The notes under the pieces are model-generated. The model saw only the letters and a program-made list of their open reading frames with translations. It was not told where the DNA came from and did no database searches. Below are positions 6,804-32,000 of a DNA stretch of 32,000 nucleotides, piece after piece (the first letter of the stretch is position 1; every line of letters begins with the position of its first letter). The DNA lies in the NCBI RefSeq assembly GCF_000011125.1, contig NC_000854.2:1230001-1262000 (forward strand), written 5' to 3'. The translations under genes were made by a program, and so were the position numbers. Source of the DNA: Aeropyrum pernix K1. GTDB taxonomy: Archaea > Thermoproteota > Thermoprotei_A > Sulfolobales > Acidilobaceae.

Positions 6804-7019
6804 ATGAGGTGCAGAGTAGTGGCGGGTTCTAAGGTGCAGAGGATAGGTGATAAAGAGGATTATAAGATGCTTGTCACCGAAGGCTCCGTGTTTCGAGTCG
6901 CAATTATAGACGGCATGCTGAAATGCCCCCTCTGCGAAGCGATATTCTCAACACCACGCGATCTTGAATACCACATAGCAGCTTACCACGTTTACACTTT
7001 GAGCAGGAAGAACAAGTAA
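6804..7019 (+). CDS. small C2H2 zinc-finger protein
   Basis: 71 aa. CPLCEAIFSTPRDLEYHIAAYH is a canonical C-x2-C-x12-H-x4-H finger. Alternative ATG at 6867. Confidence 0.55.
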   Translation: MRCRVVAGSKVQRIGDKEDYKMLVTEGSVFRVAIIDGMLKCPLCEAIFSTPRDLEYHIAAYHVYTLSRKNK

Positions 7020-7057
7020 ACCGCCCTAAACTCCCCTACAAACCTAAGTAGATATAC

Positions 7058-7072
7058 ACCCCCCGGTATACA
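7058..7072 (+). repeat. third (15-nt) copy of the ACCCCCCGGTATACA motif
   Basis: Exact 15-mer shared with 30177-30191 (same orientation) and with 31243-31257 (inverted). It is embedded in TATACAC-N7-TATACAC (7053-7073). Confidence 0.8.
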
Positions 7073-7084
7073 CAAAATATTCTG

Positions 7085-7163
7085 GACGCCCCGCCGGTCT
7101 CACGTCCGCCGAGACCCCCGATGGGGGGATGAAGATGAAGGCGGATCGGTAAGGCGGGGTACA
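7085..7163 (+). ncRNA. candidate structured sRNA (weak H/ACA-like hairpin)
   Basis: Hand fold. The lower stem pairs 7088-7095 with 7153-7160 (8 bp), followed directly by ACA at 7161-7163. The inner stem pairs 7106-7110 with 7140-7144. An apical C5/G5 stem is flanked by GA (7113-7114) on one side and GAU-GA (7128-7132) on the other, which is kink-turn-like. The non-canonical stem is poor and no oligo-T follows. Confidence 0.2.
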
Positions 7164-7704
7164 AAGTAAAGATGGGGGAGAAAGCCTTAACGACACGTAT
7201 GGCTATCGCAGCTTCCTTCTCCTCGAGGAGCGCAGGACCTCGGCCCTAGAGGAGGCTGAAGGAGTGGAGGTATCGCTGTATTATTTGCTAACAAAATATT
7301 CTATGCCTGTTTCGCTCCCCAACTCACTAGCTCTTTACGCTCGCTTCATAACAGAGCCGACCTCTCGGGATAACAACCAGACCAAGGCCAAGGTGAAAGA
7401 GTAGGGGCCAGTAGCACAGAGGACCTCAGGGTTCGCACTCTAACGCAGATAGGCCAGCGAGTCTCAGTTCAGATTGTCTAAGGCTAAAGAGGATCTCGAG
7501 CGTAAGACGCGTGAACCCATTTATCTAAGGTGCTCTACCCTGTAAGCTTTTATACCGCACTCTAATAGGAATTTTTAATGGAGCAGCGCGAACATGAGGA
7601 ATCCCTAGCCCGTGGAGAGGCCGTAGGCCCGGCTTCCCGGGCCGATGGGCTTGTCGAGCCGGATCCGACTGTTTTAACTTCAAGTCTAAACGTCGGCTGC
7701 TAGT

Positions 7705-8565
7705 TCATTTCTTCCCCGCATGCTGTTTGTAGTGCTTCTTTATTTCGCCCAAATCTGGGGAGGCGGGGGGTGACCGCTTGTGGCTGCTGGCTTCGTGGAG
7801 TAGCCGGACCCTCTCTACCTTAGCTCTCTCTAACCCCGTTGCACGGGGTATTTCTTCCCAGGGGATCTTCAGGTCGAACCTCGAGTACAGAATTACGTCT
7901 ATCTCGTTGTATGATAGGCCAAGCTCGGCTTCAGCCTCATGACCTTTCCAGAGTCTTGGGCTGCTGGGCTTGTAAGCGATGTCCCTAGGTACACCTATTA
8001 GCTCAGCCAACCTTCTAACCTGGGATTTGTAGAGGACTGTGAGCGGTGCCACATCGCAGGCAGCATCGCCGTATTTAGTAAAATAGCCTATGAGATACTC
8101 GCTCCTATCACCCGTGCCCAGGACAAGCTTGCCCAGCTTGTTAGCATAGTAGTAGAGTATGTTCGCGCGTATTCTTGCCCTGAGGTTTCCTACCGGGACT
8201 CTATCCTTCTCTTCATCCTCGAAAATTGGAAGAGCCGAAATATACACCATTACTATAGGTGAAATATCTATTACAGCATGCTCAACCCCGAAGCTCCGGA
8301 CAAGCCTTAAAGCGTCCTCCACATCCCTCTCCGGAGTAACCTCCCTATCGGGCATTATAAGGGCCGTAACCCTACCGCTTCCAACAGCGTCCACCGCAAG
8401 GGCTAGTGCAAGACTTGAGTCAACACCCCCGCTCACACCCAACACATAGCCTGAGGCGCCCGAGGCCTCAAGGTATTTCCTGAGAAACTGTGTTATTGCC
8501 TGTCTTACACCATTATAATCTATGTCAACAACATCGTCTAAACTAACCTTATAATTAACAGCCAA
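7705..8565 (-). CDS. nadE: NH3-dependent NAD+ synthetase
   Basis: 286 aa. The SGGVDSS PP-loop lies within GVSGGVDSSLALALAV, and similarity to NadE runs the full length. TTG start. Confidence 0.9.
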   Translation of the reverse strand: MAVNYKVSLDDVVDIDYNGVRQAITQFLRKYLEASGASGYVLGVSGGVDSSLALALAVDAVGSGRVTALIMPDREVTPERDVEDALRLVRSFGVEHAVIDISPIVMVYISALPIFEDEEKDRVPVGNLRARIRANILYYYANKLGKLVLGTGDRSEYLIGYFTKYGDAACDVAPLTVLYKSQVRRLAELIGVPRDIAYKPSSPRLWKGHEAEAELGLSYNEIDVILYSRFDLKIPWEEIPRATGLERAKVERVRLLHEASSHKRSPPASPDLGEIKKHYKQHAGKK

Positions 8566-29289: not shown

Positions 29290-29529
29290 TTGGGGCCGAG
29301 TGAGAGGGTTGTGAAGGAGAGGCTTGTAAAGAGGCTGGAGGAGCGGGGCGTCGAGCCTGGGGCGGTGGCGGAGTGGCTGTGGGAGGAGTTCGGGATAAGA
29401 GTCGCCCCCAGGTGGGAGAGGGTTAGGCAGGCGCTCATGAGGCGTGACGTGACCCCCCAGGACCTCGTCTCCCTTCTCGACGAGCTGGGCTTCGATCTGG
29501 AGGCTGTTGAGGATGCTTGGGAGGAGTGA
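29290..29529 (+). CDS. hypothetical small acidic protein
   Basis: 79-aa ORF (TTG 29290, alternative GTG 29311). Helical. Divergent from argF and immediately upstream of the next ORF. Confidence 0.45.
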
Positions 29530-29557
29530 ATGCATACTCCTAAAATCCGTGCTGGAG

Positions 29558-30130
29558 ATGGCCAGGCCGAGGAAGGGTGGTACCCCGACGTTCACAGCCT
29601 ACCACGCCGCCCGGGCCCTAAACCTCCTCGAGGGCGAGAGGCTGGGGAGGCAGAGGCTTGCGAGAAGCCTCGGGCTTGGGGAGGCCTCGACAAGGACCCT
29701 GCTGGAGATAATGGGTGAGCTGGGGCTCGTGGAGAAGGCCGGCCGGGGGTTCCAGCCAACCAGCAGGGGCAGGGAGCTCGCCAAAACACTCTCCAGGGTC
29801 ATAAGGGTTCACACAGGGACTGCCAACCCCATACCCGGGGGGGCAGCAATAATCCTGCCAAACATAGACCCCCCCGAGGACCTCACGTCCGTGTATAAGA
29901 TAAGAGACTACCTAGTAGAGGAGGGCTGCAAGGTAGCCGTCATAGGGGGCACCCAGCAGGGAAGGCCGGTCTTCCCAGGGGTGGAAGGCCCGCCGGTAAC
30001 ATATATCGTCGAGGCCGTCGAGGACCTCGGCATAACAGGCAGCTCAACCATAATATTCGTCCCCCGAACATGCCTGCCCCAAGCCTACAACGCTGCACTC
30101 AGGATAATTGTGGAGAGGCTGTGTAAGTAG
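29558..30130 (+). CDS. winged-helix DNA-binding protein with C-terminal alpha/beta domain (DUF4443-like?)
   Basis: The ORF is open from TTG 29507, with ATG at 29513 and 29558. wHTH-like stretch [36 protein letters not shown]. The family name is tentative. Confidence 0.6.
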
Positions 30131-30171
30131 ATTCAGCCCGGTGTTATGGGGGGTTCCTATACACTAGCCCT

Positions 30172-30191
30172 TGTTAACCCCCCGGTATACA
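30172..30191 (+). repeat. 20-bp inverted-repeat arm B (TGTTAACCCCCCGGTATACA)
   Basis: Perfect reverse complement of 31243-31262, and 24/26 matching when extended. A degenerate opposing copy at 30142-30157 (TGTTATGGGGGGTT) forms a local palindrome with it. Confidence 0.85.
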
Positions 30192-30399
30192 AGCTAGAAA
30201 CATAACATATACAACCACAACCAGCAAAGGAGTCTCGAAGAAGCGGTAGGTAGGGTTCGGGTTTTTCTTGTCTAGGTAATACGTTTATAATGATACAAAA
30301 GGTAATATCATAGAGTATTTAGTATTAGAGCTTACACCCGGCACCCCCAGGACCATAATATCGGGGGTGTATTGTAGTAGATACTAGTAGCCGGGTGGT

Positions 30400-31335
30400 C
30401 TAGGCATCTAGACCGGCGCTGCACGCCTCTAGAACATCTTTAGTCTTCTTGGACATGCCTACTCTCATGCCGAGACGGGGGTCGCGGTAGATGTATATGA
30501 AGCCCTTGGTCTGGAGGCTCCTCAGGTTCTTCACTAGCCACTGGAAGTCGGCCTGCATACCTTCCTGGAGCTGGTCTAGGTAGATGTATGTTGTCCCCCA
30601 CTTGGCGTAGTGGTCTAGAAGGAACCTCATGATCTCGGCCTCCTCCTCGTCAAGCTCCTCCGCTATAACGTCGAGGGCGCATGATGCTGTGAGACCCCTG
30701 TTTTGCTGTTTATTGCCTGGCTTACCTTTTAACCCGGCAATGAATGGCAAGGGAGGGCCAGCCTGCCTCCTCGGGCGCGCTTCTCTCTTGCTGTTTATTG
30801 CCGTCTTATCAGGTAAACTGTTGAGTATACGTTGGGCCACTGCAGCGAACTCGTTGAACCTATCCCTACTCTCCCTATCGAGGACCTCCCGGGCGTACTC
30901 CTCCCCAAGGGTGGTGAGGTACCAGAGGCCCGACTCGTACTCCACATACCCCCGGGTCTTCCAGTAGCTGAGGTAGCTGGATATGTAGCGGGTGCTGTAG
31001 CCCAGTATACCGGCGATCTCGGCAGCCCTCATAGGCTTGGCAAGCAGCATAACCAGTATGGCGTCGACAAGCCTGCTCCTAGGCCCCCTCCTACCCCGGG
31101 CCTTGGCCTTAGCCTCCTCATGCTGCTCCAGATACTCCCTAACCGCCCTCCAGAGGTCGTCAGACACGCCTAACCCCACAACAATAATATGCCGCTCTAG
31201 GGTGTGGTGTTGGAGGGGTTGGTAGTACTGGGCTGCAGAGCCTGTATACCGGGGGGTTAACAGGCCGTTCACCCAAACCGTGCCTTCATGTAACAAATTA
31301 TGGCAGGTTGTGTCGGGCACGGCTGGGTTCATCAC
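30400..31335 (-). CDS. two-winged-helix DNA-binding protein (plasmid/virus Rep- or regulator-like)
   Basis: 311-aa ORF from ATG 31335, with alternative GTG starts at 31179 and 31167. It has two wHTH-like units (LVDAILVMLLAKPMRAAEIAGILGYSTRYISSYLSYWKTRGYVE and IMRFLLDHYAKWGTTYIYLDQLQEG...LRSLQTKGFIYIY). They are joined by a basic linker. No housekeeping family recognised. Confidence 0.6.
   Translation of the reverse strand: MMNPAVPDTTCHNLLHEGTVWVNGLLTPRYTGSAAQYYQPLQHHTLERHIIVVGLGVSDDLWRAVREYLEQHEEAKAKARGRRGPRSRLVDAILVMLLAKPMRAAEIAGILGYSTRYISSYLSYWKTRGYVEYESGLWYLTTLGEEYAREVLDRESRDRFNEFAAVAQRILNSLPDKTAINSKREARPRRQAGPPLPFIAGLKGKPGNKQQNRGLTASCALDVIAEELDEEEAEIMRFLLDHYAKWGTTYIYLDQLQEGMQADFQWLVKNLRSLQTKGFIYIYRDPRLGMRVGMSKKTKDVLEACSAGLDA
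31243..31262 (-). repeat. 20-bp inverted-repeat arm C
   Basis: The plus strand reads TGTATACCGGGGGGTTAACA, the exact reverse complement of 30172-30191. It lies inside codons 25-31 of the long form of the ORF. Confidence 0.85.
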
Positions 31336-31340
31336 GGTCT

Positions 31341-31392
31341 CCCCGGGGCCGCCTACGGAAGCCCCTGGGGGCTTCCCTCGGGAACCCCGGGG
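31341..31392. promoter_or_regulatory. GC-rich nested palindromes (CCCCGGGG ... GGAAGCCCC-tg-GGGGCTTCC ... CCCCGGGG)
   Basis: CCCCGGGG occurs at 31341-31348 and 31385-31392. These flank a perfect 9+9 palindrome at 31357-31376, directly upstream of ATG 31335. Confidence 0.6.
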
Positions 31393-31434
31393 TCACCGGG
31401 GTTAGGTTTATGAACTTCAAGCCTTAAAGTTTTG

Positions 31435-31449
31435 TTGGGGATTCCCCAA
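31435..31449. promoter_or_regulatory. palindrome TTGGGGA-T-TCCCCAA
   Basis: Perfect 7+1+7 palindrome in the upstream region of the two-wHTH ORF. Confidence 0.55.
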
Positions 31450-31472
31450 TATGAGCTACCGAAGAGATATGC

Positions 31473-31503
31473 TTAGATAGGCATTCAACATCAGCCTATC
31501 TAA
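31473..31503. promoter_or_regulatory. 10-bp perfect inverted repeat TTAGATAGGC-N11-GCCTATCTAA
   Basis: 31473-31482 is the exact reverse complement of 31494-31503. Confidence 0.6.
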
Positions 31504-31516
31504 TAGCTCTACGCGG

Positions 31517-31556
31517 TATAGAAAGATACAGTCCGATACAGAAAGTTACAGCTTAG
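31517..31556. repeat. helically phased array: 4 x 10-bp units each starting TA(T/C)AG
   Basis: The units are TATAGAAAGA / TACAGTCCGA / TACAGAAAGT / TACAGCTTAG. GATACAG occurs at 31525-31531 and 31535-31541. TAYAGAAAG occurs at 31517-31525 and 31537-31545. Confidence 0.65.
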
Positions 31557-31610
31557 TGTTTCTGCCCCCGCACCACGGCCAACCAAAACCCTCAGGCGAC
31601 ACACCCCTCG

Positions 31611-32000
31611 CTAGTCCATGTAGCTTTCCAGCGTCTTCCTAGGCTTCATGAGCTGTGAGATCCTCTTCGCCAGGCCCCACTCGCCTATGAGCTTGGAGGC
31701 GAGGGCGTCCAGCTCGCCCGGCTGGGGGTTTTTGGCGAGGGGTTTTTGTGCTAGCGCGTGTTTGACCGTCTCCCTTATGTGCCAGTTGCCCACGGGGGCG
31801 TAGTACTGTGGGAGGACCTCCCTCACTATTATCACGTCAGCCCTTCGGCCGCGGGAGTATAGGTGTTCGAGGACGGGCAGCTTTGCGGCGCTGAAGCCGC
31901 CGTCCTCCATGTTCTTCCTGCCCAGGGGGTCTTCACGTACTACGGAAGCCACCGGGCCGCCGGCGCCGGGGGTCCAGACGGTGTGTGGGTGCCATATCTC
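31611..32000 (-). CDS. C-terminal part of an NreA-like (archaeal Nre family) DNA-repair protein; 5' end outside window
   Basis: The frame is open to the window edge (EIWHPHTVWTPGAGGP precedes the listed GTG). YYAPVGNWHIRETVKHAL resembles the Nre C-domain. The C-terminal RKTLESYMD resembles a PCNA-interacting (PIP) box. Confidence 0.45.
   Translation of the reverse strand, partial: EIWHPHTVWTPGAGGPVASVVREDPLGRKNMEDGGFSAAKLPVLEHLYSRGRRADVIIVREVLPQYYAPVGNWHIRETVKHALAQKPLAKNPQPGELDALASKLIGEWGLAKRISQLMKPRKTLESYMD

Follow-up and report, generated by a model that had tools for sequence, protein, structure and literature searches.

The stretch of the Aeropyrum pernix K1 genome analysed here (contig NC_000854.2, positions 1,230,001 to 1,262,000; a window of 32,000 nucleotides (nt), whose own numbering is used throughout) holds at 30131-31610 an interval of ~1.5 kb in which a single long open reading frame (ORF) is accompanied by repeated and AT-rich DNA, and the question raised by this arrangement is what kind of genetic unit it represents. 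A preliminary description, made from the letters alone, had proposed an island carrying a plasmid-type Rep/iteron mini-replicon or the remnant of a mobile element. The evidence assembled below makes it highly probable that the interval instead comprises whiP, the gene for the winged-helix initiator protein WhiP of A. pernix K1, together with a WhiP-type chromosomal origin of replication that corresponds to Sulfolobus oriC3. This is a known locus: the model hyperthermophile has two replication origins, of which this is one, and its initiator and origin were established between 2007 and 2013.

The sole long ORF of the interval (30400-31335, minus strand) is listed with 311 amino acids (aa), a reading that corresponds to an old database entry, the superseded annotation of 1999. 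Over its 255 C-terminal residues it has the same sequence as A. pernix K1 WhiP (BAA81006.2/WP_010866728.1), and a protein search returned 142 homologues at E ≤ 1e-3, which are 240-260 aa in length, cover only the C-terminal ~80% of the 311-aa query and in many cases bear the name 'replication initiator protein WhiP'. Matches to proteins named WhiP in Desulfurococcales, Acidilobales, Pyrodictium and Stetteria range from E 1e-166 to 1e-61, and the whiP loci of Sulfolobales were picked up with the same profile. Judged by its sequence, the ORF is whiP. Alignment of the homologues places the start codon at GTG 31179 or GTG 31167, and the current K1 annotation begins at the latter, giving a gene at 30400-31167 (minus strand) that encodes 255 aa; a start at GTG 31179 would give 259 aa. 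Because the start moves to GTG 31167, the spacer upstream of the gene measures 443 bp and not 275 bp. An AlphaFold2 model (72 homologues; mean predicted local distance difference test score 83.5) contains two winged helices, at residues 36-88 and 178-242; between them come a long helix (90-121) and a disordered basic linker (122-156). The view of a single ORF encoding two winged helices joined by a basic linker is thus borne out by the model, while the length of 311 aa given with it has to be corrected to 255 aa.

A TATA-like box, ATATTATTG (31182-31190, minus strand), was read from the sequence ~15-23 nt 5' of the whiP start and is kept in K1, in the A. pernix assembly GCA_004323575.1 (L081 among the loci that we fetched from genomes, cited by number where needed) and in A. 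camini (L083). It is likely to be the whiP promoter, in which case the leader would be short or absent. The pre-start TATA-like sequence ATATTATTGTTGTGGGG (31174-31190) also recurs past the whiP stop as ATATTATGGTCCTGGGG (30345-30361), with 82% identity over 17 nt. The post-stop copy, which all five Aeropyrum lineages retain, may serve as a second promoter directed into the origin spacer.

To our knowledge, WhiP is the only archaeal factor other than Orc1/Cdc6 known to define an origin. In Sulfolobus, whiP adjoins oriC3, and initiation at oriC3 was mapped to the intergenic region directly 3' of the gene (PMC3607249). Stop codons introduced into S. islandicus whiP abolished the firing of oriC3 and left the other origins unaffected, and chromatin immunoprecipitation (ChIP) placed WhiP within its own ORF and over the in-vitro sites that border the downstream intergenic region (PMC3607249). 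The protein is described as distantly related to Cdt1 and defines oriC3 without Orc1/Cdc6 (PMC3607249). For A. pernix itself, two origins confirmed by marker frequency correspond to Orc1-1/oriC1 and to WhiP/oriC3 (PMC10769869).

The DNA 3' of whiP in K1 has the character of an origin centre. GC content is 0.44 at 30131-30399 and falls to 0.37 at 30196-30340, with 0.55 for the whole window, so that the AT-rich stretch noted earlier at about 30190-30340 is confirmed. Within it, on the minus strand at 30290-30302, lies CCTTTTGTATCAT, which matches published forms of the 'uncharacterized motif' (ucm) of origins: the S. islandicus ucm oligonucleotide AATTCTTTTGTATAATGGTT (PMC12141716 supplement) and the ucm TTATACAAAC, the latter from a 2026 preprint that gives the pattern of WhiP-type origins as IR(+)/ucm/IR(-), where the inverted repeat (IR) is the 12-bp TACTACTACTAC. 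In every Sulfolobus origin and in both origins of A. pernix the AT-rich centre contains the ucm, to which the abundant protein UBP binds; ucm and UBP are needed for oriC1 function in Sulfolobus, S. islandicus oriC1 being the only origin at which ucm function was tested (PMC12141716). Two AGGTAATA repeats flank the K1 ucm, at 30274-30281 and 30300-30307, and the surrounding 44-nt block (30265-30308) is 91% identical to that of another Aeropyrum species, compared with ~78% for the coding region.

For 64 whiP loci taken from genomes, we compared the 350 nt that follow the stop codon of the gene. A conserved post-stop element emerged, with the consensus TATTACyGTTTGTATAATG-N6-7-GTATTAC, and the published ucm forms its core. 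In 36 of 70 loci a TTTGTAT-type core could be placed 56-138 nt past the whiP stop; the core 8-mers of the element occur in 27-29 of the 64 spacers, as against 2-4 in background sets drawn from DNA >1.2 kb away from whiP. The presence of the published ucm in the AT-rich spacer indicates that this stretch is the origin centre; 30196-30340 is a candidate for the duplex-unwinding region of a WhiP-type origin and, by analogy with Sulfolobus, initiation in A. pernix would fall within it. Neither the origin recognition box (ORB) dyad TCCANNGGAAA nor any ORB or miniORB was found at or near the locus, and oriC3 has likewise been reported to be without ORB or miniORB.

Conservation of the neighbourhood bears directly on the age of this arrangement. 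The interval lies between p207 (29507-30130, plus strand), a gene for a 207-aa protein with weak CggR_N/PH0730-like matches to a winged helix-turn-helix (wHTH) at its N terminus, and an Nre gene on the minus strand whose stop codon is at 31611 (Nre_C match, E 1e-25). These are the regulator-like and NreA-like neighbours of the preliminary description, although the 'DUF4443-like' label that it gave to the former was not reproduced by Pfam. The order Nre-whiP-p207-p79-OTCase is found in Aeropyrum and in many metagenome-assembled genomes of Desulfurococcales and Acidilobales, and with extra genes in Sulfolobales, where Nre, OTCase and sometimes p207 lie near whiP. Gene order conserved across orders shows that the locus is not a recent island, and the suggestion of a mobile remnant unlike its surroundings fails on the same ground, as the same neighbours recur across Desulfurococcales and Acidilobales. 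Comparison of the junction in related genomes showed whiP to be conserved between these neighbours, with ~297 bp extra in K1.

A further link to the Sulfolobus system lies inside the gene. The part of whiP that encodes the linker contains a perfect 15-nt direct repeat, GGCAATAAACAGCAA in the sense strand (30703-30717 and 30788-30802, minus strand), which the preliminary description had overlooked. The two copies are 85 nt apart and are translated in different frames, as AINSK and GNKQQ. A repeat matching at least 12 of 14 positions at exactly this spacing and at the same position in the gene occurs in 36 of 70 whiP genes, among them that of a Sulfolobaceae locus (L069); the next most frequent spacing is found in 9 of the 70 and reflects a repeat at the protein level. 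Since the K1 copies are read in two frames, the repeat must be conserved as DNA, with selection acting at that level. According to the legend of Fig. S1E in PMC3607249, the S. islandicus whiP ORF holds a perfect direct repeat that is footprinted by WhiP, and by analogy the K1 repeat appears to match it. Between the two K1 copies, at 30736-30750, lies an inverted copy with 12 of 15 positions retained (GGCAATGAATGGCAA on the plus strand), which encodes the family-invariant 'FIA' of an otherwise variable linker; this invariance may reflect a constraint on the DNA rather than on the protein.

The strongest repeat of the interval, also overlooked before, is a 24-nt inverted repeat that we term motif A. 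Its left arm, the origin-distal copy TGTTAACCCCCCGGTATACAAGCT, lies at 30172-30195 (plus strand), ~205 nt past the whiP stop, and its right arm, the promoter-proximal copy, at 31239-31262 (minus strand), 72-95 nt 5' of the whiP start. The arms are complementary at 23 of 24 positions (0.00 such pairs expected from shuffles), stand ~1.07 kb apart and enclose both whiP and the AT-rich spacer. Most loci of Desulfurococcales and Acidilobales carry its 18-20-nt core, GTTAACCCCCCGGTTAAC, in the surroundings of whiP: this pattern has 124 matches in 600 kb against ~2 estimated by chance, and 96 of these lie within 700 nt of the ends of whiP. The logo built from 132 sites reads (T)GTTAAC[C/T]CCCC[G/A]GTT[A/T]AC(A), that is, two GTTAAC-type palindromic hexamers around an asymmetric run of C. 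Upstream copies in the other loci (53 sites) have a median position of 113 nt before the start and a mode of 70-115 nt, while the 43 downstream sites fall 148-440 nt past the stop (median 199, mostly 170-240) and mostly have the K1 orientation. The commonest arrangement is inverted, as in K1, and in Desulfurococcales and Acidilobales whiP lies, with its intragenic repeats and the ucm spacer, between the two members of the inverted pair. In Sulfolobales, motif A lies ~0.3 kb upstream and ~0.9-1.5 kb downstream of whiP, inside genes.

K1 has in addition a weak, degenerate inverted copy, CCATAATATCGGGGGT (30353-30368), just 3' of the whiP stop, at which the block CCCCGATATTATGG is kept in all five aligned Aeropyrum lineages; together with the copy at 30172-30195 it would bracket the ucm, and a role for it may be supposed from this position. 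Further copies lie at a distance. A third GTTAACCCCCCGGTTAA copy is located within the Nre coding region of A. pernix (L081, 2231-2248) and A. camini (L083, 2194-2211), ~0.6 kb before its stop and equivalent to about 32235-32252 in window numbering, past the window end. Several Acidilobaceae-type loci carry an extra copy ~2.6 kb upstream of whiP, beyond Nre (L013 at 1291, L015 at 1301, L020 at 1427, L022 at 1403, L034 at 1428 and L035 at 1309), set in the context ACCC-TTTAACCCCCCAGTTTACA-GGGG, and the positions of the gene-internal copies ~0.3 kb upstream of whiP in Sulfolobales are conserved. Motif A thus seems to cluster across several kilobases around the origin. A literature search, which did not cover Robinson & Bell 2007, returned unrelated papers and none that prints the motif-A sequence.

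The whiP module does not always face the same way between its neighbours. Where both neighbours lie no more than 900 nt away, 12 loci are K1-like (Nre> whiP> <p207), 10 have the whiP cassette alone inverted and 8 show a third arrangement. The K1-like and inverted states both occur within Aeropyrum, where two lineages (L001 and L082) have the block of whiP and ucm reversed between flanks that are collinear with K1. To the resolution that divergence allows, the breakpoints of inversion fall within ~40 nt of motif-A copies. Recombination between inverted motif-A copies is the simplest explanation for the flipping, and recombination between the two arms would account for both orientations of the module between the same neighbours. 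If this is true, motif-A-mediated flipping would reverse whiP transcription relative to both replication forks.

The picture that best fits these data for K1 can be drawn as follows. WhiP would be made from the promoter just 5' of GTG 31167 and would bind repeats in and around its own gene, namely the pair of intragenic 15-mers with their 85-bp spacing and sites at the borders of the spacer downstream. In the middle of this AT-rich spacer, UBP would occupy the ucm (30290-30302); MCM helicase would be recruited, and replication would start bidirectionally from the spacer. Motif A would be a further origin-associated element.

Several points weigh against the assignment to a WhiP-type origin. 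The TACTACTACTAC inverted repeat is degenerate in K1, where no copy with two or fewer mismatches is found and CTACTAGTATCTACTAC alone follows the stop; such repeats are present in Acidilobus-type and Sulfolobaceae loci (L025, L041 and L069). Neither the profile search of Protein Data Bank (PDB) sequences nor the top Foldseek matches revealed any similarity of WhiP to Cdt1. WhiP dependence has been demonstrated genetically in S. islandicus only, and for the exact place of the mapped A. pernix origin with respect to whiP we rely on papers that cite Robinson & Bell 2007, in place of the primary data. Finally, the protein that binds motif A could be WhiP, Orc1-1, p207 or none of these. The 207-aa p207 is a candidate reader of the motif. 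It and p79 (29290-30130 together, plus strand; 79 and 207 aa) are uncharacterised and accompany whiP in most Desulfurococcales and Acidilobales loci, in either orientation of whiP.

Of the readings that compete with a WhiP-type origin in which motif A is an initiator-related site, the one that survives best concerns the motif itself. The inverted pair could mark the ends of an anciently captured replicon, or be the target of a dedicated inversion system, and not bind an initiator at all, the module being an invertible cassette. The predominance of inverted pairs that bracket whiP and the origin, the comparable numbers of K1-like and inverted loci, the presence of both states within Aeropyrum and the proximity of breakpoints to motif copies all fit this idea. 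No recombinase gene is linked to the module, however, and the K1 assemblies give no sign of an inverted form. The copies in Nre and kilobases away, and the three to four copies of mixed orientation in some loci, are more suggestive of a protein-binding site that occurs in clusters. Near origins, homologous recombination between short inverted repeats commonly gives rise to inversions, for which no dedicated system is needed. We therefore regard the cassette reading as distinctly unlikely. A broader proposal, that motif A is an undescribed, deeply conserved component of WhiP-type origins that bounds the module, perhaps as the vestigial ends of a captured replicon, and mediates its flipping, is somewhat better placed and still rather doubtful. 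In K1, the 297-bp cassette that resembles a small RNA gene would then have been acquired directly at one such boundary.

A more conservative possibility is that the protein is an ordinary MarR/TrmB-type winged-helix regulator whose repeats are autoregulatory operators, with no replication role in Aeropyrum. Its family matches could be read in this way. Pfam returned only weak wHTH matches (TrmB, MarR_2 and HTH_45), no NCBIfam model matched WhiP, and Foldseek searches of the PDB and BFVD gave generic winged-helix matches only (MarR/MepR, the multi-winged-helix RPC62 and SarS), with MarR and MepR family repressors the best; the profile search of PDB sequences at E ≤ 10 returned AF2008 alone. JGI labels some homologues as MarR, ArsR or DtxR regulators, and motif A lies just 5' of the promoter, a possible operator position. 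Yet every one of the Pfam matches is below its cut-off, initiator function of the Sulfolobus orthologue has genetic, ChIP and footprint support, the ucm keeps a conserved position in the adjoining spacer, and the literature assigns one A. pernix origin to WhiP/oriC3 (PMC10769869). Autoregulation is moreover compatible with origin function, and we give a purely regulatory role very little credence.

The case for a plasmid-like control region had been built on the DNA upstream of the ORF, which was described as 275 bp carrying four symmetric or phased elements. The elements exist; the spacer is longer, as shown above, and all four fall within a segment that is peculiar to K1. They comprise an imperfect GC palindrome (31335-31365/31368-31398, 77% complementary), the symmetric TTGGGGATTCCCCAA (31435-31449), a perfect 10-bp inverted repeat found by repeat search (31473-31482/31494-31503) and four TAYAG units read from the sequence in exact 10-nt phase (at 31517, 31527, 31537 and 31547); Tandem Repeats Finder called no tandem array, the TAYAG series included. 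The segment that contains them is an insertion of ~297 bp (31264/7-31560/3) between motif A and the Nre stop codon. Two relatives lack it: A. pernix GCA_004323575.1, with flanks ~97% identical to those of K1, and A. camini, with otherwise collinear flanks. The junction in the former reads ...GGGGGGTTAACAGGCC|CCCGCACC, and a 3-nt 'GCC' is found at both ends of the extra segment in K1. The more distant Aeropyrum lineages L001 and L082, which have a complete whiP locus, show an equally short gap between motif A and the whiP start. By comparison with its relatives, the insertion is a late, K1-only addition and dispensable for the module. What had been taken for an operator/iteron control region is thus strain-specific, the conserved cis elements of the locus being others, and this DNA beside the whiP promoter should not be mistaken for conserved control DNA.

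The insertion has features of its own. It folds better than shuffled sequences on both strands (z = -4.1 and -4.5), and a GC-rich hairpin at 31339-31408 (minus strand) resembles the Sulfolobus small RNA family Sso133 (Rfam RF02814) over the full length of the model, with 36.9 bits, under the gathering threshold of 44, and an E value of 7.9e-4 for the window. A BRE/TATA-like sequence, AAAACTTTAAGG (31422-31429, minus strand), ends ~14 nt upstream of the hairpin, and a small RNA gene within the insertion is a reasonable guess and no more. Seven Sulfolobales loci showed no Sso133 near whiP, so the hairpin does not accompany whiP as a conserved feature. No second copy of the insertion was present in the window or the fetched loci, and blastn against phages and plasmids found none. 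Exact-pattern scans of viral contigs returned chance matches of 18-21 nt only, and two metagenome scans nothing homologous. With regard to the traits of a miniature inverted-repeat transposable element, inspection by eye revealed no terminal inverted repeats, and the junctions carry only the 3-nt 'GCC'. Sixteen Logan contigs of K1 bear whiP, and both of those retrieved (L085 and L086) end at 31293, 30 nt (k-1, where k = 31) into the left end of the insertion. A de Bruijn assembly breaks k-1 nt in when it enters a repeat, so the position of the break suggests a repeat elsewhere. On these two of the 16 contigs, the insertion end may be repeated elsewhere in the K1 genome and the segment may be multi-copy.

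What remains in favour of a Rep/iteron mini-replicon, in which a Rep protein with two winged helices (WH1-WH2) would bind upstream iterons and an operator, or of a recently integrated remnant, is the protein's domain plan, the adjacent AT-rich tract and the inverted repeats that bracket the whole module, beside the phased TAYAG units and inverted repeats upstream of whiP. Authors in the field have indeed likened the tandem winged helices of WhiP to plasmid Rep proteins and proposed that whiP and its origin were anciently captured from an extrachromosomal element (PMC3607249, PMC4010727); the proposed capture predates the split of Desulfurococcales and Sulfolobales (PMC3607249). The single hint of an extrachromosomal context in our searches is PHROG phrog_30448 (function unknown), which aligns with WhiP along its entire length (E 1e-64) and may have its source in a wrongly called provirus or in a genuine whiP-bearing archaeal virus. 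No Pfam Rep family such as Rep_3 was matched at E ≤ 1, and no RepE, pi or RepA was among the best 50 Foldseek matches in the PDB. WhiP homologues were found neither among PLSDB plasmids and GenBank phages (tblastn) nor in IMG/VR, and protein family searches revealed no integrase or transposase in the window. The expectation of an initiator with its origin was therefore right in kind, as WhiP and the ucm attest, and wrong as to a plasmid or iteron replicon. With whiP and its flanks conserved across orders and the supposed control region confined to one strain, the sequence comparisons leave the plasmid or mobile-remnant reading largely refuted and its probability minimal.

The rest of the window is of a housekeeping nature, with genes for geranylgeranyl reductase, Dfp, SHMT, Fe-ADH, SerRS, MoCF biosynthesis and eRF1. 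It contains no tRNA gene and no Rfam family at the gathering threshold; a scenario of integration at a tRNA gene was dropped on the former count. Scans for sigma-70 promoters and intrinsic terminators were disregarded because the host is an archaeon. At 7020-7700, between an ORF for a C2H2-type zinc finger (6804-7019, plus strand) and a gene ending at 7705, ~0.7 kb are free of ORFs longer than 52 aa. The start of this stretch carries TATACACCCCCCGGTATACA (7053-7072), whose 14-nt right half is shared with motif A; GC-rich palindromic stretches follow the site, and the stretch has no Rfam match. A sub-threshold Rfam match to the archaeal C/D-box small RNA family sR1 lies at 909-973 on the minus strand (23.2 bits, gathering threshold 45, E 0.047).

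Since the locus was known, four observations may be regarded as modest additions: the motif that brackets the module, the spacing of the intragenic repeat at exactly 85 bp from Aeropyrum to Sulfolobaceae, the repeated inversion of the module and the K1-only insertion. The bracketing motif, the 85-bp DNA element within a coding linker and the repeated flipping are possibly useful to the field of archaeal replication.

Set beside known systems, the K1 module shares with iteron replicons (RepE of F, pi of R6K and RepA of pPS10; Rep_3) a gene for an initiator with tandem winged helices that adjoins its origin, repeated sites and an AT-rich tract, and by analogy the repeats near its own gene suggest autoregulation. 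Unlike those replicons it lacks the 3-7 phased iterons of 17-22 bp, having two 15-mers 85 bp apart and inverted 18-20-mers instead, and it is chromosomal, syntenic and ancient, with no sequence or fold relationship detected. For eukaryotic Cdt1 the literature reports a distant sequence similarity to WhiP and a tandem winged-helix plan, and both proteins act in MCM loading at origins, whereas WhiP itself defines the origin, without Orc1/Cdc6 at oriC3 (PMC3607249). Closer are the Orc1-1/ORB origins such as oriC1, arranged as ORB-DUE(ucm)-ORB (DUE being the unwinding element), which resemble the K1 locus in an AT-rich unwinding region, a central ucm, bracketing inverted repeats and an adjoining initiator gene. 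They differ in that the K1 initiator is not an AAA+ Orc1/Cdc6 protein, there is no ORB dyad, and the inverted repeats stand ~1.07 kb apart and enclose the initiator gene. The ucm of K1, CTTTTGTATCAT, and the S. islandicus oriC1 ucm oligonucleotide, CTTTTGTATAAT (Dhanaraju et al. 2025, PMC12141716), are both central in an AT-rich spacer; in contrast to the oriC1 element, the ucm linked to whiP lies between two GTATTAC repeats ~26-27 nt apart, a feature that we have not seen described. The closest counterpart is Sulfolobus oriC3 (Robinson & Bell 2007; Samson et al. 2013, PMC3607249). The TACTACTACTAC repeats described for WhiP-type origins are degenerate in K1, where a GTTAACCCCCCGGTTAAC-type motif brackets the ucm instead, and K1 differs further in its extra 297-bp insertion upstream and in the position of motif A, which lies farther out and inside genes in Sulfolobales. 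Otherwise the two agree in an orthologous initiator gene, an origin in the AT-rich spacer directly 3' of whiP with its ucm, a direct repeat within the whiP ORF, the lack of ORB and miniORB, and the presence nearby of Nre, OTCase and, in some cases, p207.

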